The position numbers and the translations under genes are program-made. The notes under the pieces are model-generated. The model made no database searches, had not been told where the DNA came from, and saw nothing but the letters and a program-made list of their open reading frames with translations. From a virus, in IMG/VR virus record IMGVR_UViG_3300032291_003205, positions 38,224 through 102,223 of that record: a stretch of 64,000 nucleotides of DNA. One strand, written 5' to 3'. This document shows positions 4,363-63,339 of this stretch, piece by piece. Positions within the stretch are counted from its first letter, which is position 1, and the number at the start of each line of letters is the position of its first letter.

Positions 4363-6746
4363 TGCCACAACCAGTATCATATAACCCCGGAACACCAGTA
4401 TCAGGTAGTATACAAGAAAACAGTATATCATATGTTGTTGATGGTCAAAACCGTAACTACAGAGGTGGTTTCGGAGGACTATCTTGGATGAGTGAAGTAC
4501 CGGCGGCCAACAATGTTATTTTTATAGGTAACTCTGTTAGTTTAGGTAGAGGACCAGCTAACATACCTTTATTTTATCCTTCATATAATAACAGTGCGGC
4601 CAATATTATTTATGCCGCTAATACATTACCGGGTTCACCTAGGAATTTTACAACTACCGCAAGTGCTTATAACTGGGCAGTAACAAATAATTTCTTTATT
4701 AATAATTCTGATAATCCTATTCCTAGAATTGATGCTGATAGTATGTTTTTGTGTTTAGATGCTGAACAAGCAACTTCATTCCCACAAACAGGAACTAGTT
4801 GGTATGATATGAGTGGGGCAAATTATACAGTTACAGGTACTAATAATCCTACTTGGAATTATAATAATGGTAAATCATATTGGCAATTTGATGGTACAGA
4901 TGATTATTTTGCATTTTCCTCAACACCCCCAATAGCTCAAAGCACATATACATCAACTGTTGAAATTTGGGCTAAATCAATTAATAATGTTCCAACATTT
5001 CAAGTAATGTTTGGTGGTGGTGTACAAAATACAAACCAAGGATATTATTATGGTTTTAGACAAGATAATGCAAATTTTATGTATGCTTTCTATGCTAATG
5101 ACCAAGATGGATCTACACCAAGAGATAATAGAGTTTGGAATCACTATGTGGCTGTTTATAATCAAGCCACTGGAGCAAGATACAGGTATTTTAATGGGGA
5201 ATTATTATCTCCATCCCAAGCATCGGGAGTAACTGCTACTTCAGCTAATAGTTTTACTATTGGTGCTTTTAAAGATGTTAATACTGGACCTCAATACTTC
5301 TATAATGGGTATATTTCTAAAGTTAGAGGATACAGTAAAGAATTAACTCAAGCTGAAATTAAACAAAATTATTTCCAAGGTAATATTGTTACTGGTAGTT
5401 TAGTATTCATGATGGATGCTAATAATATAATTTCATATGAAAGTTCAGGTACCCTAGTCTATTCATTAACAGGTTCATTAAGTGGTTCATTAATAAATGG
5501 AGTTGGATATAATACAGGAAATGGAGGCAGTTGGGTATTTGATGGAACAGATGATTATATTAATTTTGGTCCTTTAGCAACAAATTCACCATTATCATTT
5601 ACAAATGGTAATTTTACATTAGAACATTGGATTAAACCAACATCTCTTCAAAGTAGTACATATTTTGGTTTAACTAATATAATATTATCTAAAGGTCCAG
5701 CTAGTACATTCAATTATGCAACCCAAGTTGTTGATGCTACAAGTGTTAGGTTTTATCATAGAGATAATAATGAAGGTTTATCTAATAATACATTTACAGT
5801 TCCTAATTTATTAAATGCATGTACCCATCTAGTGTTTGTTATTAATCCAGCAGGAACTCAAATTACTTTATATATGAATGGTATTTTACAGCAAACACAA
5901 AATTTAACTGGAAATCCTATAACCCCCTATACAAATGATGAACTACTTATTGGTAGTCACTATGGACAGCAATATACTAACTTTATTGGTAACATTTATA
6001 CAAATAGAATATACAGTAGAGCACTCACCTCAGATGAAGTCCAACAAAACTACCAAGCAACCAAAGATAAATTCCTAGGTGAAAACATAGTAACAAACGG
6101 ATTAGTACTTAATTTAGATTCTGCTAATAAAGATTCATATCCTGGAACAGGAACAACATGGTATGATTTAAGTGGAAATGGAAATAACGGTACTTTACAA
6201 AATGGACCCTTGTTTATACCTAATCAAAATAGTGGTGTTTTATCATTTGATGGAGCAGATGATTTTGGGACAGCTGGTAGCTTTTTTACATATCAAGCAT
6301 TCACAATTAATTTATGGATTAGACCAGGTTCATCTCAAACAACATATGCTGATATAATTGATAATAACCATACAGGAACCCAGAACTGGGTATGTCAACA
6401 AAATGAAAATAACCTAAACCAATATGAATTTGCGGTACTTGGTGGGGGAGGTGCTTTTAGTACAACAGGATTATTCACATTAACTTCAAATATATGGGTT
6501 AATTTAACTTTTACTTATGATGGTGACAAAGTAAGAGGATATAATAACGGATCTTTATTTGGAACTGGTATTTCTCTAGGTACTACTATTAACTATGTTG
6601 CTCCTACTTTTAACATAGGTAGATGGAATCTTGGAGGTAGAAATTGGAATGGACAGTATGGTATAATAAATGTTTATAACAGAACATTATCTGCAGCAGA
6701 AATAACTCAAAACTATAATGCTGCCAAAACAAGATTTGGCCTTTAA
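4362..6746 (+). CDS. Triple LamG/ConA-like domain protein, paralog of 2041..4362
   Basis: Homologous N-terminal domain and three LamG modules; ends QNYNAAKTRFGL. Confidence 0.8.
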   Translation: MPQPVSYNPGTPVSGSIQENSISYVVDGQNRNYRGGFGGLSWMSEVPAANNVIFIGNSVSLGRGPANIPLFYPSYNNSAANIIYAANTLPGSPRNFTTTASAYNWAVTNNFFINNSDNPIPRIDADSMFLCLDAEQATSFPQTGTSWYDMSGANYTVTGTNNPTWNYNNGKSYWQFDGTDDYFAFSSTPPIAQSTYTSTVEIWAKSINNVPTFQVMFGGGVQNTNQGYYYGFRQDNANFMYAFYANDQDGSTPRDNRVWNHYVAVYNQATGARYRYFNGELLSPSQASGVTATSANSFTIGAFKDVNTGPQYFYNGYISKVRGYSKELTQAEIKQNYFQGNIVTGSLVFMMDANNIISYESSGTLVYSLTGSLSGSLINGVGYNTGNGGSWVFDGTDDYINFGPLATNSPLSFTNGNFTLEHWIKPTSLQSSTYFGLTNIILSKGPASTFNYATQVVDATSVRFYHRDNNEGLSNNTFTVPNLLNACTHLVFVINPAGTQITLYMNGILQQTQNLTGNPITPYTNDELLIGSHYGQQYTNFIGNIYTNRIYSRALTSDEVQQNYQATKDKFLGENIVTNGLVLNLDSANKDSYPGTGTTWYDLSGNGNNGTLQNGPLFIPNQNSGVLSFDGADDFGTAGSFFTYQAFTINLWIRPGSSQTTYADIIDNNHTGTQNWVCQQNENNLNQYEFAVLGGGGAFSTTGLFTLTSNIWVNLTFTYDGDKVRGYNNGSLFGTGISLGTTINYVAPTFNIGRWNLGGRNWNGQYGIINVYNRTLSAAEITQNYNAAKTRFGL

Positions 6747-12411: not shown

Positions 12412-13095
12412 ATGAAAACACTTATCATTTCAGACCTTCATATAGGGTCTAAAGGTTGTAAAACAGAGGAGATTTTAGAGTTATTAAAAGACGAGTCATT
12501 TGAACGTTATATTTTAGTAGGAGATATAATTGATGGGTGGTTATTTAAAAAATATAAAAAATTCTCATACCAACATGCTCGAGTAATTAGACGTTTACTT
12601 AAATTATCTAAAAACAAAGATATTATTTGGATTTCAGGTAATCATGATGAGTTTTTACGTAAGTATACTCCAATTGAACTAGGTAATATTAAAGTAGTAG
12701 ATGAATTTATTGAAGATGGTATTTGGTATTGTCATGGAGACAAATACGATGGTATTGTTAAGATGCGTTGGTTAGGAATATTAGGTTCAATTGGTTATGA
12801 TTTAGCTATCATAATTGATAGATTTTTAAAGCGTTTTAATAAGAAAACTAGTTTATCTAAATACCTTAAAGATAATGTTAAAGCCGCTGTTTCGTTTTTA
12901 GTTGATTTTGAAAATGAAATGGTTCGTCAAGCTAAAAAACGTAAATGTCATACTGTAGTTTGCGGTCATATTCACACTCCAGAATATAAAATTATTGATG
13001 GAGTGGATTATTTGAATTGTGGTGATTGGGTTGAAAATTGTTCACACATTGTATTAGAAAATAATAAATTTAACTTATGTTATCAAAACAACTAA
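12412..13095 (+). CDS. Calcineurin-like metallophosphoesterase (LpxH / UDP-2,3-diacylglucosamine hydrolase-like)
   Basis: SDLHIG, GDIID, GNHD, HGD and GHIH motifs. Confidence 0.88.
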   Translation: MKTLIISDLHIGSKGCKTEEILELLKDESFERYILVGDIIDGWLFKKYKKFSYQHARVIRRLLKLSKNKDIIWISGNHDEFLRKYTPIELGNIKVVDEFIEDGIWYCHGDKYDGIVKMRWLGILGSIGYDLAIIIDRFLKRFNKKTSLSKYLKDNVKAAVSFLVDFENEMVRQAKKRKCHTVVCGHIHTPEYKIIDGVDYLNCGDWVENCSHIVLENNKFNLCYQNN

Positions 13096-14145: not shown

Positions 14146-14594
14146 TGCGTATTTTGCTGCTTATATTGGTTTTATTTACGTTTAACAACGTATATAGTCA
14201 AATAACTATACCGGCAATGGCAAGCCAATACGCTAAAACAATTGACTCGGCTATAACGTTGGTTCAAAAAACTGATATAGAGGTTTATAATAGACTAGAT
14301 AGTGTTTGTGATGGGGTTGATTTATGGTTAGGTAGTTTTTCGTCTTGTAGTGACGGGATTATTTACATAAGTAGGAACGATGTTTTATTAGGTGTTCAAA
14401 ATGTAGCCGCTGTTTTGGTTCATGAAAGTAAACACTTATGGATTTGGCAACAACAAATCAAATTGGAGATTGAGCAAGAGGAGACAATGTGTTATAAGTA
14501 TGAGTTAGAGTTTTTAAATAAAATACCTAACTGTAGTTGGGAGCTTAAAAAACATGCTATAAATTTTATAATAGAGTTTGGCTCCCCAAAATAG
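14145..14594 (+). CDS. Secreted HExxH zinc metallopeptidase-like protein
   Basis: Signal peptide; LVHESKH plus downstream EE. Confidence 0.55.
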   Translation: MRILLLILVLFTFNNVYSQITIPAMASQYAKTIDSAITLVQKTDIEVYNRLDSVCDGVDLWLGSFSSCSDGIIYISRNDVLLGVQNVAAVLVHESKHLWIWQQQIKLEIEQEETMCYKYELEFLNKIPNCSWELKKHAINFIIEFGSPK

Positions 14595-14608
14595 GGTTCG
14601 TATATTCA
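14578..14608 (+). promoter_or_regulatory. Promoter TTG-N20-TATATTCA (ATG 4 nt downstream)
   Basis: Repeated motif. Confidence 0.7.
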
Positions 14609-14612
14609 CGGC

Positions 14613-15043: not shown

Positions 15044-15462
15044 GCAAAGAATATAACGAGTGGTATTGGAGATTGTATAGGTGGATAAGATGGGAATTAC
15101 CTTACCAACACAAGTACATTAAGTACGGAGTTAAAAACCTATATAACTGGTTTTGGATCATTTGGAAGGATAGAGACTGGGACCATCATTATATTTTTGA
15201 GGTATTAAAATTTAAATTAGAAAAACAAGCCAAACATTTAGGTGAAAGAAATTGGCATGAAAGTTCTAAACGTGATGCTGAGTTAATGATGACTTGTGTT
15301 AGGTTGATTAATAAAATTCAAAATGAAGAATATTATGATGGGCTTTATAATTTAGATGAAAAGTCACCTGAAGTATTTAAAATAGTAATCGATAGACATA
15401 ATAAAGCTAGACGTTTATTATTTAAAATTCTGGAGCAAAAAATTGAAAGTTGGTGGGATTGA
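15040..15462 (+). CDS. Hypothetical protein (Trp-rich phage family)
   Basis: DRDWD...WWD. Confidence 0.65.
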   Translation: MSKEYNEWYWRLYRWIRWELPYQHKYIKYGVKNLYNWFWIIWKDRDWDHHYIFEVLKFKLEKQAKHLGERNWHESSKRDAELMMTCVRLINKIQNEEYYDGLYNLDEKSPEVFKIVIDRHNKARRLLFKILEQKIESWWD

Positions 15463-15463
15463 T

Positions 15464-15494
15464 TTGGAATCCCGAGAGATTATTCGTATATTCA
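15464..15494 (+). promoter_or_regulatory. Promoter TTG-N20-TATATTCA (ATG 4 nt downstream)
   Basis: Repeated motif. Confidence 0.7.
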
Positions 15495-15498
15495 CGTC

Positions 15499-16128
15499 AT
15501 GAAATTAGATAAAAATAGTAAATTCTACACACCACCAACGTTTAAACAACGTTTAGATAATATCAAGTATGGTATATTGTTTTGGAAAGGACGTAGTAAA
15601 GGTATGATTTATACTCGTAGTATTGAGTTAGATGATCTACGTTACATATTCTTTCCTAAAGGTTTTCATGAAAAGTATAGTTATTTAGGTTCTGTTCCTT
15701 ATAATGAGGACGGACCATATTTTAAAGCAATGCTTCCTTTAGTATTAGCAATGGATTATGAGGCAAGACCTAAGTTATGTCCAAAATGGTTCTTACGTTT
15801 CTTAGAAGTATTTGGTAACGATAGATCTATTGTTCGAGTTCGTAACCGGACTTTGCACGATCTACATAAGAAACTAACTAAAGGTATGCGTTTTATTGAT
15901 TATAAAACTAAATGGGAGGATTATGACTTACGTATTTCAATTAGTGCTCCTAAACATTTACAAGATCTAGCTGATGATATTGAATTTGGATATTACAGTA
16001 GAGGTAAACAAGAAGAGTTAGTAGCTGAAATAAAAAAATTAGACCCTAATGCTAGTATTATTTGGGGGAGTGTTGATAGATTAACAAAACAATTAGAAGA
16101 ATTAGAAAACAAACAAGATAATAAATAA
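15499..16128 (+). CDS. Hypothetical protein
   Basis: 209 aa ORF. Confidence 0.65.
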   Translation: MKLDKNSKFYTPPTFKQRLDNIKYGILFWKGRSKGMIYTRSIELDDLRYIFFPKGFHEKYSYLGSVPYNEDGPYFKAMLPLVLAMDYEARPKLCPKWFLRFLEVFGNDRSIVRVRNRTLHDLHKKLTKGMRFIDYKTKWEDYDLRISISAPKHLQDLADDIEFGYYSRGKQEELVAEIKKLDPNASIIWGSVDRLTKQLEELENKQDNK

Positions 16129-16134
16129 GAAGTT

Positions 16135-16818
16135 ATGGAAAATCAAAATAGTGTATGTTTTGTAGCTCGTATTAACGAGATTAAACCAATTGAAGGAGCA
16201 GACAATATCGAACTAGCAGTAATTGGTGGTTGGAACTGTATTGTAAAAAAAGGACAATACAAAGTAGATGATTTAGTAGCTGTAGCAACTACTGATGCAG
16301 TCATTCCTCAACATTTGTCTGATGATATGAATGTGACTAATTACTTACGTAAGGGTGGTCGTGTTCGTACTGTTAAATTAAGAGGTGTTTATTCCGAGTG
16401 TTTGATTATTCCTATTGAAAAAACAGGATTATTCAAATATGAGTTTACTGAAGGTAAAGATTTGATGGACATAATGTACATCTACAAGTACGAACCACCA
16501 GCAGTTCAAATCCAATTATCTTCAGGTAAGATTAGGAAATGTAAGGAGAATGAAGCTTTTAAAGTGTATTATAAATTTCCTAATATCAAGAATGTAAACG
16601 GTATGTTTAATGAATTTGATGAAGTAGAGGTAACACGTAAAATACATGGCACATCAGCAAGATATGGTATTGTTAGAAAAGTAGAATTAACTTTATTAGA
16701 TAAGGTTAAGTTGAAATTAAATAAGATGTTTGGTATTGGAGGTGATAGTTGGAAGTACTGCGATTATGAATTTTATATTGGTAGCCATAATGTTGTAAAA
16801 GATATACAAGATTTGTAA
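16135..16818 (+). CDS. RNA ligase (DRB0094 / Rnl2-like family), N-terminal half
   Basis: IKPIEGADNIE OB-like N-domain, VKLRGVYSE, adenylation motif I TRKIHGTS, ends just after GSHNV. Confidence 0.85.
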   Translation: MENQNSVCFVARINEIKPIEGADNIELAVIGGWNCIVKKGQYKVDDLVAVATTDAVIPQHLSDDMNVTNYLRKGGRVRTVKLRGVYSECLIIPIEKTGLFKYEFTEGKDLMDIMYIYKYEPPAVQIQLSSGKIRKCKENEAFKVYYKFPNIKNVNGMFNEFDEVEVTRKIHGTSARYGIVRKVELTLLDKVKLKLNKMFGIGGDSWKYCDYEFYIGSHNVVKDIQDL

Positions 16819-16838
16819 CTTTTATATATTTATGTCCG

Positions 16839-17555
16839 ATGGATATTTCGAGCAATATAGGAATTTATAAAATATTAAATCCTAAAGGAAGAGTATATAT
16901 TGGACAATCTACTAATTTAAAAAATAGAGAAAAACAATATAAAAACATAAAAGAATCTAAAGAACAAATAAAATTAAATAGATCTTTTAAAAAATATGGG
17001 ATTGATAATCACCTATTTGATATTGTAGAGTATTGTACTTTAGAACAGTTAGATGATAGAGAAATATATTGGGGTGAATTTTATAATGTATTAAAAACAG
17101 GTTTAAATTGTAGATTAGGTAGAGGTAGAGGATTAGTAAGTGATGATTTGAGAGAAAGAATGAAAATATCTAATAAAAGGAAAAAAATTAAACCTGTTTT
17201 ACAATATGATTTATATGGTAATTTTATTAAAAAATGGGAAGCAATTTCAGATGCTGAAAAAAGCTTAGGAGTTAATAATAATACTAACATAAGTGCTTGT
17301 TGTTTAGGAAAACAAAAAACAGCATGGGGTTTTATTTGGAGATTTGAAAACGGGGATATAGAGAAAAAAATAGAGGGAGTAAAACACACACAAGTAGTTG
17401 TACAATATGATTTAGAAGGTAATTTTATTAAAGAATGGGATAATATAAAACAAATTAAAGAAACATTAGGTTTTTCTTATTCAACATTATATGAATGTGT
17501 AAATGGAAGATGGAAACAATGTAGTGGTTTTATTTGGAAGTATAAAGAAATTTAA
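16839..17555 (+). mobile_element. Free-standing GIY-YIG homing endonuclease with two NUMOD1 repeats
   Basis: GIYKILN...VYIGQS; two VLQYDLxGNFIK.W...GFIW repeats; own TATTTAT motif. Confidence 0.88.
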
Positions 17556-17563
17556 AAATAAAT

Positions 17564-17594
17564 TTGGCTTCCTGAAGGATTGTTCGTATATTAA
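17564..17594 (+). promoter_or_regulatory. Promoter TTG-N20-TATATTAA
   Basis: Repeated motif; upstream of the mini-gene array and ligase C-half. Confidence 0.7.
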
Positions 17595-17624
17595 CGACAT
17601 AGAAAAAAGATAAAAATAAAAGTT

Positions 17625-17927
17625 ATGACAAACAATAAACAACAAACGGCAGTACAACTAATTATTGAAGCCTTGGACATTGAATGCAAATCAAGAGGAA
17701 TGAATGTGAATTGGGATATGTATTTAGAAATAGAGAAGAAACAGAGGATTAAAGACAAACTTGAATTGTCAGCATCTTTAGTTAAAAATAAAGAGCAACA
17801 ACATGAAACTACTTGGATAGCAGCACTTGACTATGGAATTGAAAAACTGAAAGGTTTAAATGATTTAGAATCTAAAGATGCTTTTGAACAATACTATGAA
17901 CAAACCTACGGAGGAGGTGAGCAATGA
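17625..17927 (+). CDS. Small hypothetical protein (MTNNKQQTA...TYGGGEQ family)
   Basis: Shared terminal motifs. Confidence 0.65.
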   Translation: MTNNKQQTAVQLIIEALDIECKSRGMNVNWDMYLEIEKKQRIKDKLELSASLVKNKEQQHETTWIAALDYGIEKLKGLNDLESKDAFEQYYEQTYGGGEQ

Positions 17928-17950
17928 CAAACAATAAACAACAAACGGCA
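17904..17950 (+). repeat. Gene-junction repeat ACCTACGGAGGAGGTGAG-(C/T)AATG-ACAAACAATAAACAACAAACGGCA
   Basis: 27-nt identity between 17625-17651 and 17924-17950; 18-nt identity between 17904-17921 and 18698-18715; variants at 18128, 18345, 19211. Confidence 0.85.
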
Positions 17951-18145
17951 ATGAAACAACACACATACGAAGAGTTAATATCTATTTCAGATAAACTTTA
18001 CAGAGAACAAAACCCAACAGGAACTATGTGTACACCAAATAGTGTATACATAACAGTAATTGAAAAGTGGTATCCTAAATATATAGAATCTAAAAGCGAA
18101 TTAGATTTCTATGACTACTGTATTAAAACCTATGGAGGTGAGTAA
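17924..18145 (+). CDS. Small hypothetical protein (MTNNKQQTA...TYGGE)
   Basis: Shared terminal motifs. Confidence 0.65.
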   Translation: MTNNKQQTAMKQHTYEELISISDKLYREQNPTGTMCTPNSVYITVIEKWYPKYIESKSELDFYDYCIKTYGGE

Positions 18146-18378
18146 TGACAAGTAAATATAAAATTGGTGACATCATAGTTACCCAAAGAGAATATTTACT
18201 CTTGTTTGATGAAGGTGAGGAGTATGAAATTGTTGATATTGAAAACAACTTGGGTGATTTAATGTATTATGTTTCTCATAACGGGAAAAGGATAGCAAGT
18301 TGGGGTCTTAAAGAATTTGAATTGGATATTCAATTTATAAAAAAACCTACGGAGGAGATAACAAATGAAAGTAAATGA
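18145..18378 (+). CDS. Small SH3-like hypothetical protein
   Basis: KYKIGDII...GEEYEIVDI pattern. Confidence 0.55.
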   Translation: MTSKYKIGDIIVTQREYLLLFDEGEEYEIVDIENNLGDLMYYVSHNGKRIASWGLKEFELDIQFIKKPTEEITNESK

Positions 18379-18718
18379 ATTAAGAATTGGAAATTGGTAC
18401 GACCAATTTAGCAATCACCACAAAGCAACATGGGCTACTTTAAAACAATTAGATGAAGCACCCAAATCTCAACTTTGGTGCAAACCCATCCCACTCACAG
18501 AAGAATGGTTGTTAAAGTTTGGGTTTGAGCGTAGACAGATTAAAGATTTAATAAGTTACACCTTGCCAAAATTAGAGTTGTATCAATATTCATCTAATAA
18601 CAATAAGATATTTTTTGAATATGCTGATGGGGAAATACAACTTAGATATGTCCACCAACTACAAAACCTATACTTTGCTTTGACTGGTGAAGAATTAACC
18701 TACGGAGGAGGTGAGTAA
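18365..18718 (+). CDS. Hypothetical phage protein (ELRIGN...PIPLTEEWLLKFGF...VHQLQNLYFALTGEEL family)
   Basis: Recognisable phage small-protein family. Confidence 0.7.
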   Translation: MKVNELRIGNWYDQFSNHHKATWATLKQLDEAPKSQLWCKPIPLTEEWLLKFGFERRQIKDLISYTLPKLELYQYSSNNNKIFFEYADGEIQLRYVHQLQNLYFALTGEELTYGGGE

Positions 18719-19035
18719 TGAGTCTTGACTTGAACAAACTTGCAAACAAACTTGATGAAGCGTTAAGCAATGAAACAAGCGAAACACTAAATAAATTTTT
18801 AAACGATAAAAGAATGGAAAACAACAAACAAACAACACCAGTTGTAGTAAAACAGCCCACAGGGGTAGCTATTAACACCGAAAATGTAAGCCCTGAATTA
18901 ATTAACCTTTTAACCCAAAACTTTGATCACTATGAAGATGATTATTTCGGTGTCATTGGGATGGATAACGGATCCGAAGAACATAAATCACTTATGGAAT
19001 CAATGTCTAAAATGGGTATGGAATGTAAGAAATAA
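18718..19035 (+). CDS. Hypothetical protein
   Basis: Contains an internal MENNKQTT copy of the array motif. Confidence 0.6.
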   Translation: MSLDLNKLANKLDEALSNETSETLNKFLNDKRMENNKQTTPVVVKQPTGVAINTENVSPELINLLTQNFDHYEDDYFGVIGMDNGSEEHKSLMESMSKMGMECKK

Positions 19036-19052
19036 ACAATAATAAACAAATT

Positions 19053-19229
19053 ATGATACATCAAGAATTAAATGAATGGGATGAAAATATAAAAGCATTT
19101 GTAAAAGAAAAACAAATGACTAAGGAAGTACAAGAAGAATTTTTAACGGAATACGACTCTCATCTATTTAGAGGTGGAATTAACGATGTTGAATGGTTCT
19201 ATAACGAATTATATGGAGGTAACAAATGA
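19053..19229 (+). CDS. Small hypothetical protein ending LYGGNK (58 aa, not in ORF track)
   Basis: MIHQELNEWD...YNELYGGNK*; ATGA overlap with ligase C-half. Confidence 0.6.
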   Translation: MIHQELNEWDENIKAFVKEKQMTKEVQEEFLTEYDSHLFRGGINDVEWFYNELYGGNK

Positions 19230-19741
19230 AAAAGTTATTTAATAAATTATTTAAAAGAAAAAAAGAGAAGACTCACTTCTACCCAACAGACGTTTGGTCT
19301 GAAATTGCTGAAAAATATCATATTAGAGAACAATTGTGGAATTTGTTTAAATCTTTACAAGATGTTTATGAGATTGGTTCCGGTATTGTAATCTATGGTG
19401 AAATTTATGGTCCTGGTATTCAAAAGAACTATGACTATGGTTTGAAAGAAATTGAATATGCTGGATTTGATATGACTATTAATGGTGAATACACACCATG
19501 TAGTACTAGTTTTATGTATCATGATATGTTGGGTTTAAAATATGTACCTGTTTTGGCTGCTGATACTTGGTCTCAAGAATTACAAGAAAGATATATGTTT
19601 GATAAAATCGAAGGAACTAAAGTACCACATGAAGGTGTTGTAATTAAATCTATGGATGGTGACAGACGTAAAGTAGCTAAAATAATCAATCCAGAATATT
19701 TGATTTACGGTGAAAAAAATAACGTAGGAGATTCACACTAA
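19226..19741 (+). CDS. RNA ligase (DRB0094 / Rnl2-like family), C-terminal half
   Basis: Motifs III IYGEIYGPGIQKNY, IIIa AGFD, IV HEGVVIK, V AKIINPEYL. Confidence 0.85.
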   Translation: MKKLFNKLFKRKKEKTHFYPTDVWSEIAEKYHIREQLWNLFKSLQDVYEIGSGIVIYGEIYGPGIQKNYDYGLKEIEYAGFDMTINGEYTPCSTSFMYHDMLGLKYVPVLAADTWSQELQERYMFDKIEGTKVPHEGVVIKSMDGDRRKVAKIINPEYLIYGEKNNVGDSH

Positions 19742-19753
19742 AAATAAAACAAA

Positions 19754-20122
19754 ATGATAACAGGAGAACAACCTAAACTATTAGTTGCCATTGATGAAAA
19801 TGGCAACATAGGTCTTGATGAAAATCAAGCTGAATTGATGGGCTTAATTGAAAAAGAATTTAATTGGAAATTAGTTCGTGAACGTGATGGTCTAACTAAT
19901 CAATCTAAAGATATTAAATGGATTGAGTGGAATGAGGAAGGTAGATATAAAGCTGACCATAAAGAACCAGCAGTGGGACGAGCATTACTTATGTCTCCAT
20001 TTAATGATTTTTTTACTTGGATGACAACAGATATTACAGAAATCGTGGAAGAGCGAGAGGATTATATTAAATTCAAGACACGAAATAGTAATTATGAATT
20101 ATGGAAACTAAAAAACGATTAA
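19754..20122 (+). CDS. Hypothetical protein
   Basis: Ends FKTRNSNYEL, a common phage motif. Confidence 0.65.
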   Translation: MITGEQPKLLVAIDENGNIGLDENQAELMGLIEKEFNWKLVRERDGLTNQSKDIKWIEWNEEGRYKADHKEPAVGRALLMSPFNDFFTWMTTDITEIVEEREDYIKFKTRNSNYELWKLKND

Positions 20123-20421
20123 GTAGAGAACAAAAATGGGAAAAGGCAGTTATTGATTTAATTAACGAAATGTTTATCATGGCTGGTCATGAAGTTACTT
20201 TTGATGACATCAAAGATAGAAAAGATAACTGGTTTCAGCAATGGACTATGACTATGCAACAATACGAGGACTGGAAATTATGGGGTAAAAAATACCTTAT
20301 GAAAAATTTAAGACTTAGTGCTAAAAACGCTGAAAGAGAGATGATGTGGGTAGGATTACAGTGGGGTCTTAAATGTAGTGATTATGAAGAATATTGTAAA
20401 AAACGGGAAGATGAGAATTAA
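20101..20421 (+). CDS. Hypothetical protein
   Basis: ORF in operon. Confidence 0.6.
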   Translation: METKKRLSREQKWEKAVIDLINEMFIMAGHEVTFDDIKDRKDNWFQQWTMTMQQYEDWKLWGKKYLMKNLRLSAKNAEREMMWVGLQWGLKCSDYEEYCKKREDEN

Positions 20422-20751: not shown

Positions 20752-20758
20752 AACAGAT

Positions 20759-20789
20759 TTGGCTTTCTGAGGGATTTTTCGTATATTCA
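20759..20789 (+). promoter_or_regulatory. Promoter TTG-N20-TATATTCA
   Basis: Repeated motif. Confidence 0.7.
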
Positions 20790-20808
20790 CGTTATAGAAA
20801 TAAAGGTT

Positions 20809-22178: not shown

Positions 22179-22640
22179 ATGAATAAATGTAATTACTGTA
22201 ATAAGGAAACACATAATTCTTGGAGTTATCACTCAATGATTTTGCCTCGTGAAGAAATGGAGCAAAAGATTGATAAATGGGGTAGATTAAGTTGGTGGGA
22301 ACATATGAAACGAACTGATTTAACTGAAGATGAAACCAAAGAACTAGAACAATTATCCTTTTATGACCAGATGCTTAATACAGTAGGTAGAGGTTATCAG
22401 TGTGATGATTGTGCTAAATTAGAAAATAAATTATATAATAAGTACTATCCTGAACAATCTGGTTACCCTGAACAACCAGTATTCCCTTCAATTACTTTAA
22501 AAGAACGAATAGTAGGGGTATTAAAAATACATTCTATTGAAAAACCAGAAGATTGGTCTTACATCATCGAACAACGTGACTTTGAAGAATTAGCAGATAA
22601 TTTAATAAAATGTTTTGAACAATTTGGAAGTTCAAAATAG
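22179..22640 (+). CDS. Hypothetical protein with two CxxC pairs
   Basis: CNYC...CDDC. Confidence 0.6.
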   Translation: MNKCNYCNKETHNSWSYHSMILPREEMEQKIDKWGRLSWWEHMKRTDLTEDETKELEQLSFYDQMLNTVGRGYQCDDCAKLENKLYNKYYPEQSGYPEQPVFPSITLKERIVGVLKIHSIEKPEDWSYIIEQRDFEELADNLIKCFEQFGSSK

Positions 22641-22654
22641 GGTTCGTATATTGA
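22624..22654 (+). promoter_or_regulatory. Promoter TTG-N20-TATATTGA
   Basis: Repeated motif. Confidence 0.65.
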
Positions 22655-22675
22655 CGACATAAAGGAATTAAGATT

Positions 22676-24582: not shown

Positions 24583-24584
24583 AT

Positions 24585-24615
24585 TTGGCTCCCCAAGAAA
24601 CGATTCGTATATTCA
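24585..24615 (+). promoter_or_regulatory. Promoter TTG-N20-TATATTCA
   Basis: Repeated motif. Confidence 0.7.
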
Positions 24616-24634
24616 CGATATAGAAATAAAGGTT

Positions 24635-25895: not shown

Positions 25896-25903
25896 AAATA
25901 AAT

Positions 25904-25934
25904 TTGGCTCCCGCAGAGAGGGTTCGTATATTCA
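25904..25934 (+). promoter_or_regulatory. Promoter TTG-N20-TATATTCA
   Basis: Repeated motif. Confidence 0.7.
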
Positions 25935-25957
25935 CGACATAGAAATAAATAAAGGTT

Positions 25958-28347: not shown

Positions 28348-28364
28348 AAAGAAGAACCATCTTT

Positions 28365-28395
28365 TTGGCTCCCCGAGATCCCGTTCGTATATTCA
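28365..28395 (+). promoter_or_regulatory. Promoter TTG-N20-TATATTCA
   Basis: Repeated motif. Confidence 0.7.
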
Positions 28396-28425
28396 TGTCA
28401 TAGAGATAATTAGAAAATAAAGGTT

Positions 28426-31105: not shown

Positions 31106-31122
31106 TTGCCTCTGCAGTAAAT

Positions 31123-31153
31123 TTGTCTCCCGAGGATATCTTTCGTATATTCA
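31123..31153 (+). promoter_or_regulatory. Promoter TTG-N20-TATATTCA
   Basis: Repeated motif. Confidence 0.65.
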
Positions 31154-31184
31154 CGGCATAGAAAAAAGATAAAAAATAAAAGTT

Positions 31185-32232: not shown

Positions 32233-32317
32233 GCTGTTGTGGTGGAATGGTAGACACGAAGGACTTAAAATCCTTTGGGACGTAAGTCTCGTGCCGGTTC
32301 GAGTCCGGCCAGCAGTA
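32233..32317 (+). tRNA. tRNA-Leu(TAA)
   Basis: Cloverleaf; AAGGA-CTTAAAA-TCCTT; long variable arm; GGTTCGAGTCC. Confidence 0.93.
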
Positions 32318-32348
32318 CAAAAAATAAAAAATATATATTTATAAACAC

Positions 32349-32540
32349 ATGAAAAAATTATTTATTATCGCCGCTTTAGTTACTTTGGCTTCTTGTTCAA
32401 ACGAAACTACCTCTACTTCTACAGACACAACTTGTGTTGATTCAACCTGTTGTGATTCTTTAAATACAGATTCTCTTATTCAAAGTACAGAAGCACATGC
32501 TGATTCTTTGCATACAGAAATCCAAGAGTTGAAGAAATAA
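32349..32540 (+). CDS. Small lipoprotein
   Basis: MKKLFIIAALVTLASC lipobox; Thr/Asp-rich. Confidence 0.75.
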   Translation: MKKLFIIAALVTLASCSNETTSTSTDTTCVDSTCCDSLNTDSLIQSTEAHADSLHTEIQELKK

Positions 32541-32547
32541 TCTTCTT

Positions 32548-32620
32548 GCCCCCTTAGCTCAGTTGGTAGAGCTTCTGATTTGTAATCAGATGGTCGGCGG
32601 TTCGAGTCCGTCAGGTGGCT
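32548..32620 (+). tRNA. tRNA-Thr(TGT)
   Basis: TCTGA-TTTGTAA-TCAGA; one C-U acceptor mismatch. Confidence 0.9.
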
Positions 32621-32624
32621 CAAA

Positions 32625-32720
32625 GGTGGTAGTTAGACGAAAATGAAATTCCTGCTGTGATGTTAACTTAATCAGCATATTCAGAAGTAGAAATGAGTAA
32701 TCGCAAATTACTCGCCACCA
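32625..32720 (+). ncRNA. Unknown structured RNA with tRNA-like ends
   Basis: GGTGGT/GCCACC closing stem; GAGTAAT-CGCAA-ATTACTC hairpin; ends ACCA. Confidence 0.5.
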
Positions 32721-32725
32721 TATAG

Positions 32726-32796
32726 GGCGGATTAGTGTAATGGTAACACATAAGGCTCATAACCTTAAATTGGCAGTTCGAGTCTGTCGTCCGCAA
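32726..32796 (+). tRNA. tRNA-Met(CAT), initiator-like
   Basis: TAAGG-CTCATAA-CCTTA; 1:72 mismatch. Confidence 0.85.
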
Positions 32797-32797
32797 C

Positions 32798-32924
32798 AAA
32801 AGAAAAGTAGTGAAGCTGTAATTGAGAGGTAGAGTGTTTTAAATACTGAAAAAGGGTTAATAGTAGGTAGGCGTCACTCATTGCACTCAATCAGAAACCC
32901 TGAAAGACCCGAAGCTTTTCTTTT
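32798..32924 (+). ncRNA. Unknown pseudoknotted RNA
   Basis: 11-bp closing stem, internal stems and AGGGTT/AACCCT pairing. Confidence 0.5.
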
Positions 32925-32930
32925 AAAAAA

Positions 32931-33014
32931 TCCGGTGTTCGTGAGGGGGAAGCAACAAGAACGAAAACACTCTCATTAAATATGTTGCATGTGTAAGTAA
33001 CGGAACCTTACACA
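32931..33014 (+). ncRNA. Pseudoknot + hairpin RNA (copy A)
   Basis: GTGAGGG/CTCTCAT, GCAACA/TGTTGC, TGTGTAAG/CTTACACA. Confidence 0.5.
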
Positions 33015-33018
33015 AATT

Positions 33019-33105
33019 GGAAGTGATCCGGATGGATGAGGAGCTGCTCTTGAAAAGCAGTAGTACGTGATGAGCGTATTGTGAGTTCGAGTCTCACCGC
33101 TTCCG
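33019..33105 (+). tRNA. tRNA-Ser(TGA), atypical D arm
   Basis: CTGCT-CTTGAAA-AGCAG; long variable arm; G discriminator. Confidence 0.88.
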
Positions 33106-33116
33106 CAAACCTTAAA

Positions 33117-33213
33117 ACCGATTCGGGTTCGTGAACAAGGGAGGCCTGTTCTTCTCGTGCAAGAAAGAAATCACGTTAAATCTCCCCACGCTAGGTGGCA
33201 GCGGTGACCTAGC
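33117..33213 (+). ncRNA. Pseudoknot + hairpin RNA (copy B)
   Basis: CGTGA/TCACG, GGGAG/CTCCC, GCTAGGT/ACCTAGC. Confidence 0.5.
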
Positions 33214-33218
33214 ATTAT

Positions 33219-33289
33219 TACCTCCTCGTCTAATGGCAGGACAAGTGGTTTTGGTCCACTTAATCGAGGTTCGAATCCTTGGGAGGTAA
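33219..33289 (+). tRNA. tRNA-Gln(TTG)
   Basis: AGTGG-TTTTGGT-CCACT; acceptor TACCTCC/GGAGGTA. Confidence 0.9.
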
Positions 33290-33301
33290 CTAAAATTTAA
33301 T

Positions 33302-33332
33302 TTGGAATTATAAAATAAAAATATTATATTGA
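33302..33332 (+). promoter_or_regulatory. Promoter TTG-N20-TATATTGA (ATG 4 nt downstream)
   Basis: Repeated motif. Confidence 0.65.
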
Positions 33333-33336
33333 TACT

Positions 33337-33771
33337 ATGAATTTGACAAAAGCACTTAAGCACAAGAAAAAGCTTGTAAAACAAGCTGATGAATTTTATT
33401 CTCGTTTTTCTAATTACAATTCTTTTGAAGTTGGAACAACCCCATCTTATAACCCAGAAGAAATGTTTGAAGGATGGTTGAAAAAAACTGATGAGTTAGT
33501 TAGTTTAAAAGCAAAAATTCATCAAGCAAATGTACCCATTGCTGAAAAGATTTTTCGATTAGGGGAAATTAAAAATATAATTTCTCGTATGCGTGGACTT
33601 GACACTAAAGAAGGAAAAGTTCGTGATCGTTATTCAGTTAATGATAATGCTATTGAATATACATCATATGTAAATTTAGTTAGTAAAGATCTTCAAATTA
33701 AAAATTATGAAGAGGAATTAGAAAAACTTCAAGAAGAAATTGAGGCATTTAATGCTATCACAAAGATATAA
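33337..33771 (+). CDS. Coiled-coil protein, DIP1984 / DUF6847-like
   Basis: MNLTKAL...LKAKIHQAN...LQEEIEAFNAITKI matches the family pattern as recalled. Confidence 0.6.
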   Translation: MNLTKALKHKKKLVKQADEFYSRFSNYNSFEVGTTPSYNPEEMFEGWLKKTDELVSLKAKIHQANVPIAEKIFRLGEIKNIISRMRGLDTKEGKVRDRYSVNDNAIEYTSYVNLVSKDLQIKNYEEELEKLQEEIEAFNAITKI

Positions 33772-33958
33772 CCAATTTAAAGAGTAAAGGTGAATTAGTA
33801 GTGCTTAATTCTTCGGAATTATCAACCCTACAGATAAACATGATGCTTTGATACTGATATTGACGAATGCCTTAAGATTCAAAATTTAAAATTCAATATT
33901 AGGAAAACTCAAATCTCAAATCTTTTCAACGAAAATTTAACTTTACTCTACTTTGGTT
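33770..33958 (+). ncRNA. Unknown ncRNA with cUUCGg hairpin and periodic repeats
   Basis: Long closing stem; TAATTC-TTCG-GAATTA; TGAY and TCAA repeat tracts. Confidence 0.65.
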
Positions 33959-33963
33959 TGTTT

Positions 33964-34038
33964 GCTCGGTTCATCTATCGGTTAGGATGCCAGGTTTTCA
34001 TCCTGGAAAGAGGGGTTCGACTCCCCTACCGAGTACCA
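33964..34038 (+). tRNA. tRNA-Glu(TTC)
   Basis: CCAGG-TTTTCAT-CCTGG; encoded CCA. Confidence 0.93.
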
Positions 34039-34040
34039 TT

Positions 34041-34114
34041 GGACCCTTAGCTCAGATGGTCAGAGCGTCAGACTCATAATCTGGGGGTCGTAGGTTCAAA
34101 CCCTACAGGGTCCA
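34041..34114 (+). tRNA. tRNA-CAT (Ile2 or elongator Met)
   Basis: TCAGA-CTCATAA-TCTGG; acceptor GGACCCT/AGGGTCC. Confidence 0.9.
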
Positions 34115-34156
34115 CAAAATCGTTTTTATATTTTTTTCATATTTATAATTGTTCAT

Positions 34157-62577: not shown

Positions 62578-63339
62578 ATGATTGGACTGATATCTTTATT
62601 AAAAGAAATACAAGGCAAGCCAAAAGCAATCTTTATGGCTGGTCCTGCTGGTTCGGGTAAATCATTTATATCTAAAAAATTAATCCCCTTAGATTTTACT
62701 ACTATTAATGTAGACGATACTTATGAGGAATTACTCAAATCCTCAGGTATTGGAATGAAATTAGCTAATATGTCACCTGATGAATTAAAAAAATCAGGTG
62801 AGCTAATGGGTCAAGCAAGAAAAGCAACAGATGCTAAACTTCAAGATGCTCTTAAAGACGCTAAAAATTTATTAATTGATAGTGTAGGAGGTTCATCTAA
62901 AACATTACTTAAGAAAAAACAAGAATTAGAATCATTAGGTTACGATACGGCAATGATAATGACTTATGTATCGCCTATTACCTCACTAGAGCGTAATAAA
63001 CAGCGAGACAGATCATTGTTGCCGAGTATTGTGATTCGTTCTTGGCGCGATGTAAATACCAATATAGACACGTATAGACAGGCCTTTGGTAATAACTTTA
63101 CCTTATTAAATTTAGATCCTGAGGATGCTAATAAAGATTTTGATGAGGAATTTATTTATAAAACTTACATTGAACCTTTAGGACAAGTAGGTAAAGAAAA
63201 ATCACCTGAAGAAAAAGCAAAATCTAAAGTAGAGGCAGATAAAATATATTCAGATATCAAACAAACTCTTAAATCACAACCTAAGTTTGATACAGTAGAA
63301 CAAGCAAAAATCAAAATTACTAACTTTATAAACAAATGA
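62578..63339 (+). CDS. P-loop kinase (AAA_33 / zeta-toxin-like)
   Basis: AGPAGSGKS, INVDD, SLERNKQRDR. Confidence 0.75.
   Translation: MIGLISLLKEIQGKPKAIFMAGPAGSGKSFISKKLIPLDFTTINVDDTYEELLKSSGIGMKLANMSPDELKKSGELMGQARKATDAKLQDALKDAKNLLIDSVGGSSKTLLKKKQELESLGYDTAMIMTYVSPITSLERNKQRDRSLLPSIVIRSWRDVNTNIDTYRQAFGNNFTLLNLDPEDANKDFDEEFIYKTYIEPLGQVGKEKSPEEKAKSKVEADKIYSDIKQTLKSQPKFDTVEQAKIKITNFINK

Follow-up and report, generated by a model that had tools for sequence, protein, structure and literature searches.

To our knowledge, very few enzymes are fragmented by a selfish endonuclease and still work (NrdA of phage Aeh1, gp43 and T4 gp39/gp60), and each comes from one or a few phages. The described members of this class of fragmented genes are nrdA with mobE in Aeh1, gene 43 in phage 25 and genes 39/60 with mobA in T4, and the products of split gene 43 and of T4 39/60 function as multi-subunit proteins (PMC2988022). 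In Aeh1 the two products, NrdA-a and NrdA-b, assemble, and their insertion-derived tails are essential (PMC3045599). Here we describe a phage locus in which an RNA ligase gene is divided in a like manner, and we consider it probable that the gene was fragmented by a homing endonuclease and that its products reassemble after translation as a two-piece enzyme. The locus lies in a 64,000-nucleotide (nt) stretch of DNA, which we refer to as the window (locus label WIN) and which corresponds to positions 38,224-102,223 of the IMG/VR virus record IMGVR_UViG_3300032291_003205. The record is 102 kb long with an estimated completeness of 62%, and carries baseplate-wedge and thymidylate-synthase genes; its source is a large myovirus-like phage. 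A literature search found no description of a split RNA ligase.

The N-terminal half of the ligase (N-half, 16135..16818, + strand, 227 amino acids (aa)) comprises an OB domain and the opening portion of the nucleotidyltransferase domain with the motif I lysine, and the C-terminal half (C-half, 19226..19741, + strand, 171 aa) holds the remaining nucleotidyltransferase domain with motifs III, IIIa, IV and V. In Pfam the N-half matches PF21189 (PHA02142 OB-fold domain, E 1.4e-15) and the C-half matches PF09414 (RNA_ligase, positions 44-171, E 2.7e-10), whilst among the PHROG profiles the N-half covers positions 5-228 of the 398 of phrog_968 ‘RNA ligase’ (E 9e-39) and the C-half positions 227-394 (E 7e-18). 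As the halves are exactly complementary along one profile, resemblance by chance can be discounted. The lysine of motif I is K169 of the N-half (KIHG, nt 16639-16641), and the C-half contributes the motif III glutamate E59 (nt 19400-19402), the motif IV glutamate E136 (nt 19631-19633) and the motif V lysine K152 (nt 19679-19681); all four are invariant in two alignments (A2, A4), and E59 and E136 align to E227 and E312 of NgrRnl. An earlier note made from the letters of this stretch had proposed a ligase split into two open reading frames (ORFs) 2.4 kb apart, with motif I in the first and motifs III-V in the second, and a gap filled by a free-standing GIY-YIG endonuclease, a promoter-like element and six small ORFs. 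All of this was borne out, the split by halves that tile phrog_968 end to end, the division of motifs by residues located in alignments, and the gap content by the ORF list, profile matches and repeat count. The same arrangement occurs in independent assemblies (L002, L080, L081, L007 and L168) and is therefore not an assembly artefact, and no second PF09414 gene was found in the 62%-complete record.

Judged by its sequence, the split gene is an Rnl5-type (NgrRnl/DraRnl, TIGR02306) RNA ligase: the ligase profile matches NgrRnl at E 4e-24 and the JGI annotation of relatives is TIGR02306. Rnl5 enzymes carry out ATP/Mn-dependent sealing of 3'-OH RNA/5'-PO4 nicks in duplexes (PMC4408790). The domain order is that of Rnl5, an N-terminal OB-like module followed by the nucleotidyltransferase domain without a C-terminal appendage, and with NgrRnl and DraRnl the window ligase shares the OB plus nucleotidyltransferase layout, the lysines of motifs I and V and the glutamates of motifs III and IV (PMC4408790, PMC7261155, PMC1807946). 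It differs from them in being encoded as two polypeptides, the first ending in a stop at 16816-16818 and the second starting anew at 19226, in a histidine in place of the motif I aspartate and in having an additional helical insert that lies between motif I and the break.

The gene anatomy is like that of the mobE-split nrdA of Aeh1, which the earlier note had offered as precedent and which is an apt one (PMC3045599). In both, a free-standing homing endonuclease lies inside a conserved catalytic region and the active-site residues are divided, and in both the fragments appear to be translated separately, with short extensions at the broken ends and without splicing of RNA or protein. The two cases differ in their target, which is a ribonucleotide reductase in Aeh1 and an RNA ligase here, and in that many lineages, two endonuclease families, variable cargo and intact long-loop alleles are found here; furthermore, the assembly and activity of Aeh1 NrdA were shown biochemically, whereas those of the split ligase are predicted. 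Similarly, split gp43 of phage 25 (with a seg-like insert) and T4 39/60 with mobA are endonuclease-associated fragmentations of essential or useful enzymes (PMC2988022), but they concern different enzymes, and neither carries, within its split, a promoter-driven array of several cargo genes.

The break is fixed across a wide set of relatives. A search with the N-half returned thousands of matches, and amongst the best 120 we recognised three classes: ~57 stand-alone N-halves (223-235 aa, 66-96% identity), ~55 intact proteins (373-384 aa) with the short loop EKGSDSQG at the break, and six intact proteins (391-398 aa; P0007, P0026, P0102, P0110, P0112 and P0117) with a long loop. The C-half search gave at least 36 stand-alone C-halves (170-172 aa, 52-84% identity), and at least 54 distinct protein clusters of N-halves and at least 36 of C-halves share one break point. 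Fetching 159 related loci from IMG/VR and JGI metagenomes yielded 139 intact genes (all with the short loop), 14 that ran off a contig end and six split ones including the window, and a degenerate tail-plus-stop DNA scan of IMG/VR added one further split locus (L166/L168). The relatives in the INPHARED phage collection were all below 30% identity, and long-loop intact alleles were found in neither of the contig collections scanned (IMG/VR and JGI metagenomes).

The order N-half, endonuclease, zero to six ORFs and C-half on one strand is the same in 5/5 complete split loci, and the free-standing endonuclease lies between two fragments that form one contiguous gene in related phages. The window and L002 have the same GIY-YIG endonuclease and six cargo ORFs each, the two sets being unrelated; L081 has an HNH-type endonuclease (phrog_655) with three other cargo ORFs, and L007 and L168 have an HNH-type endonuclease (phrog_655) with no cargo ORFs.

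Both halves evolve under constraint. The ratio of nonsynonymous to synonymous divergence (dN/dS), calculated by the Nei-Gojobori method, was 0.10-0.22 for split N-halves and 0.09-0.44 for split C-halves, compared with 0.16-0.22 for intact genes. K.HGT is retained in 54/54 split N-halves, and of the 36 split C-halves, 35 retain motif III, all 36 motif IV and at least 32 motif V. A nucleophile lysine on one protein and its catalytic partners on another, both kept across deep divergence, are hard to explain unless the two act together. The description of the halves as undecayed is upheld by dN/dS like that of intact genes, by the kept catalytic residues and by the fixed lengths, and the purifying selection that the earlier note had asked to be checked is present on each half. 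It is unlikely, then, that the split inactivated the ligase and left ORFs that are decaying remnants or have taken on separate new functions (the OB half might bind RNA, for example). A complete active site is found in neither half by itself, a ligase is dispensable in many phages and the canonical conserved loop is altered at the break, all of which would be in keeping with such a loss; but lengths are held at 223-235 and 170-172 aa over dozens of clusters with saturated synonymous divergence, dN/dS resembles that of intact genes, the motif I lysine (54/54) and nearly all of motifs III-V are retained, which is sensible only if catalysis needs both halves, and the halves occur together in 5/5 complete loci.

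To place the break in the fold, we used AlphaFold2 models of the natural fusion P0007 (mean pLDDT 78) and the canonical P0032 (mean pLDDT 81). Foldseek placed the P0007 model closest to NgrRnl 5COT, with a match along the full length (E 7.8e-22). Internal segments of low pLDDT are confined in both models to the linker between the OB and nucleotidyltransferase domains and the break loop (residues 217-245 in P0007, 211-218 in P0032), the latter predicted to lie between a beta-strand ending GSHN and a helix beginning DVW. The position of the break in a low-pLDDT loop suggests that the catalytic domain is cut, but at a flexible surface loop, which by these models is the kind of site that tolerates fragment complementation.

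Each fragment carries a characteristic peptide at the break. The N-half ends in the seven-residue tail VKDIQDL followed by a TAA stop (16795..16818, + strand), and the same tail with the same stop position is found in all split N-halves (consensus V/I/L-K-D-I/V-Q-D/S/P-L/F, with the same end residue in every recognised one). The C-half begins with a 17-residue basic, amphipathic leader (19226..19276, + strand) that is conserved in all standalone C-halves, where it is 15-17 residues long, has a net charge of +5 to +8 and immediately precedes the conserved FYPTDVW helix. The fragments have their own stop and start, and the stop and the Met start are conserved in all lineages. The tail peptide is kept while its codons differ synonymously among the window, L081, L082 and L007, which indicates that selection acts on the peptide. 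Tail and leader are without counterpart in the canonical short-loop ligases, and by analogy with known systems they may aid assembly or nucleic-acid binding. In a comparison of the tail with the ancestral short loop, 21/2000 shuffles reached the observed score for the window (p ~0.01), and the homology was not significant for L081, L082 and L007; the tail may be a diverged form of the ancestral loop and, unlike that of Aeh1 NrdA, it is probably host-derived and not strongly charged.

The six long-loop intact relatives all contain the tail within one polypeptide, and in P0007 and P0026 a further 17 residues follow it in frame, of which the last eleven are closely similar to the leader. The ends are thus not unique to split genes, and their description as apparently new had to be abandoned. 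The long-loop forms are also what would be expected if an intact gene were regenerated at the DNA level in infection by excision of the insert, since P0007 and P0026 correspond to an N-half fused in frame to 17 leader-like residues once stop, insert and start are taken out, and long-loop forms are nested among split forms in both the N-region and C-region trees. We regard such excision as very unlikely: the insert holds no recombinase and no flanking direct repeat is evident, the long-loop proteins match no split pair exactly (nearest path distance ~0.1), and endonuclease-free alleles or evolutionary deletions are simpler readings.

The gap opens with a predicted free-standing GIY-YIG/NUMOD homing endonuclease of 238 aa (16839..17555, + strand), which begins only 20 nt after the N-half stop. 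Pfam found NUMOD1 (E 3e-14, two modules) and an I-HmuI NUMOD-like domain (E 1e-9), both above their cut-offs, whilst the GIY-YIG domain itself (PF01541) scored E 1.6e-4 and 22.3 bits against a cut-off of 22.6, with GIY...YIG readable in the ORF; matches to PHROG homing endonuclease families range from E 6e-17 to 3e-7. The gap closes with the junction GGAGGT-N5-ATG (19215..19232, + strand; repeat family D3), which runs across the stop of the last cargo ORF and contains the ATG at which the C-half begins; in L002 the C-half is preceded by an identical 15-nt stretch.

Endonuclease-bearing group I introns often interrupt phage genes (PMC2988022, PMC11878797), and intact long-loop proteins exist with exactly the tail and leader in frame, so that the insert might be read as an unusually large group I or II intron that contains ORFs and splices itself out to restore one ligase mRNA. 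This is extremely unlikely given that no Rfam intron (Intron_gpI, Intron_gpII) was found at E<=10, beyond noise, in either the gap of the window or L007, the minimal locus, that the endonuclease follows just 20 nt after the N-half stop and the start of the C-half overlaps with the stop of the ORF before it, that the insert is packed with ORFs whose content is unrelated among L002, L081 and the window, and that the C-half keeps its Met start in every lineage. Protein trans-splicing of the halves by a split intein deserves almost no credence: the gene half, endonuclease, gene half layout is shared with the split-intein fractured genes (Dassa et al. 2009, PMC2677866), but no intein sequences of the kind described there flank the break, the extensions are just 7 and 15-17 residues, Pfam found no intein/Hint domain, and P0007 and P0026 still have the tail and leader-like stretch in the form of a loop, whereas an intein would have excised these residues. 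The earlier statement that neither an intron core nor an intein is present accordingly agrees with the negative Rfam (E<=10) and Pfam scans.

The endonuclease gene bears the marks of mobility. The window and L002 are 64-80% identical in DNA from the upstream region into the 5' part of the N-half, 92% identical at 16500-16800 and 100% identical across the endonuclease; homology stops just past the promoter element, at 17627, the cargo being unrelated, and resumes at 98-100% in the C-half before falling to ~88% by 20500. An identity gradient flanking an endonuclease gene is what homing co-conversion produces. In the N-region tree, 55/57 split forms and all six long-loop forms fall in one clade (SH-aLRT 95), with two split forms beside the short-loop background, whereas in the C-region tree split and short-loop forms are interleaved, with at least seven changes forced by strongly supported branches. 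The interleaving suggests that the split state has moved between ligase backgrounds by recombination, and reading a single origin of the split from the trees was rejected on the C-region interleaving with its forced changes and on the N-region exceptions. Owing to this recombination there is no simple polarity between long-loop and split forms (ancestral empty site versus secondary re-fusion).

The endonucleases themselves also appear to be mosaic. The two HNH genes sampled share 37% identity, and the GIY-YIG and HNH enzymes have a related C-terminal NUMOD module with the last eight residues identical; at the DNA level, window 17500-17635 and L081 5471-5600, which span the endonuclease 3' end and the promoter element, are 82% identical. 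By sequence the GIY-YIG/HNH pair looks like a swap of nuclease domains on a retained DNA-binding tail. In addition, ~45 nt right after the N-half stop are nearly identical between the divergent HNH-bearing L007 (7694-7740) and L082, and may act as an element that regulates the endonuclease. Outside the window, the phage record has a second GIY-YIG paralogue (G000:C1:9312-9911; 46% identical across the catalytic part) and a further NUMOD-containing frame with one stop (G000:C1:27247-27426), so the genome holds several homing-endonuclease genes. The idea that the endonuclease aims at the most conserved DNA of the gene was rejected: the junction scores 0.85 against an average of 0.77 and is not the top window, and its third codon positions are not unusually conserved.

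Downstream of the endonuclease the gap carries a 35-nt promoter-like repeat (17562..17596, + strand), which separates it from the cargo ORFs and is the second copy of an element found by a consensus promoter scan at 15462..15496 (+ strand), upstream of ORF 15499..16128 and the N-half. The element, TTTGG-N16-TTCGTATATT.ACG, occurs in nine + strand copies between 14.5 and 31.2 kb (14576-14610, 15462-15496, 17562-17596, 20757-20791, 22622-22656, 24583-24617, 25902-25936, 28363-28397 and 31121-31155) against 0.07 expected by chance. As a generic sigma-70 promoter scan was not above chance (30 hits versus 28.4 expected), the promoter assignment is based on the nine-copy repeat. The invariant core is identical in the 17562-17596 copy and in the 15462-15496 copy, which precedes the N-half operon, and a scan of 15300-20300 gave no terminator-like hairpin on the + strand, hence none in the gap. 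These sequence features make it probable that a further promoter of this class serves the C-half, which may be co-transcribed with the N-half as well, so of the proposal that the halves are under different promoters the C-half's own element stands, but the element shares its core with the upstream copy and no predicted terminator separates the two. The promoter-like element heads a small-ORF region, and in the 15462 copy an ATG follows ~7 nt past the -10-like box, which makes a leaderless mRNA possible there, with ATA in that place in the 17562 copy.

The six small cargo ORFs (100, 73, 77, 117, 105 and 58 aa; 17625..19229, + strand) are joined by a repeated junction module (junction repeats D1-D5); the junctions overlap stop and start codons, and the final one in the gap supplies the C-half start. 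At the junction, ACCTACGGAGGAGGTGAG.AATGA, adjoining ORFs end ...YGG(G)E and often begin MTNNKQQ. Junction-linked cargo occupies 17625-19232 in the window, 4695-6455 in L002 and 5590-6944 in L081, and the presence of wholly different ORF sets in three otherwise related loci indicates fast cassette turnover. The sole cargo ORF with a family is the 117-aa one (18365-18718; phrog_10066, function unknown, E 2e-21), whilst the 77-aa ORF (18145-18378) has a weak likeness to a phage tudor domain (E 4.5e-4, below cut-off). The array partly resembles T4-type PeSL cassettes, in which a repeated promoter-like element and short junctions bound fast-turnover small ORFs (PMC2839356, PMC4122927), but differs from them in that no stem-loop or terminator was detected, the junctions overlap stop and start codons and the array sits inside a split gene.

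Together these observations suggest how the locus may have arisen and may work. A homing-endonuclease cassette would have fragmented the nucleotidyltransferase domain at the flexible loop between the motif I region and motif III; translation of the N-half would stop just after the conserved seven-residue tail, and the C-half would be translated independently from its own start codon, basic leader first. The two polypeptides would then associate non-covalently and rebuild one active site, the N-half giving the lysine nucleophile and the OB domain and the C-half the metal-binding glutamates and the motif V lysine, with no RNA or protein splicing in the process. We infer that the fragments assemble into an active enzyme, and on the same footing that the halves have ligase activity, that tail and leader have a role and that homing is active. 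The endonuclease (GIY-YIG here, HNH in relatives) would keep the cassette mobile and co-convert flanking ligase sequence, and the gap would have become a site where a promoter-like element and small cargo genes, in a rapidly changing array, have settled. The two-subunit ligase of the earlier note is in this form favoured over a spliced or dead gene by the fixed break, the kept residues, dN/dS and the negative intron and intein scans, shorn of its new ends and of wholly different promoters.

Several observations weigh against this two-piece enzyme. The residue equivalent to NgrRnl Asp172 in motif I is a histidine in the window ligase, a position at which the D172A change had barely any effect in NgrRnl (PMC7261155). 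With a charge between neutral and -1 the tail is not strongly acidic, and a charge pairing like that of NrdA is not obvious; tail and leader are moreover disordered in the P0007 fusion model, which leaves a structural role for them unsupported. Synonymous divergence is saturated in distant pairs, the closer and more informative ones being the N-halves of the window and L002 (dS 0.53, ratio 0.18) and the C-halves of the window and L081 (dS 0.44, ratio 0.34). The trees come from quick searches and are confounded by recombination.

More tentatively, tail, stop, start, leader and endonuclease could form one portable unit spread by co-conversion, which would turn intact alleles into a functional two-subunit form and so carry its own protein-level substitute for splicing. 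The gap would then be a protected, promoter-equipped dock that captures small genes to be expressed with the C-half, and the long-loop intact alleles would represent an empty or re-fused stage. An RNA ligase split within its adenylyltransferase fold would add a new enzyme class to the phenomenon, and the canonical intact, long-loop intact and split forms, the last with two endonuclease families and variable cargo, provide a natural comparative series. The series makes it testable whether terminal peptides are needed in assembly, how fragmentation spreads and reverts, and how insertion sites become gene-capture hotspots, and a naturally split ligase could serve as a two-component ligation tool.

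Upstream of the split ligase in L007, a 236-aa ORF (5852-6562) has primase-polymerase-like motifs (D.D, ...NGYH). In the window, a metallophosphoesterase (PF00149, E 2e-14; 12412-12981) lies ~3 kb upstream of the ligase and a P-loop AAA_33 kinase (E 6e-8; 62629-63045) lies 43 kb downstream; dispersed rather than clustered, they are possible end-healing partners in an RNA repair pathway. A cluster of seven tRNAs at 32233-34115 (Leu-taa, Thr-tgt, Met-cat x2, Ser-tga, Gln-ttg and Glu-ttc) would offer potential substrates or beneficiaries of an RNA repair ligase.

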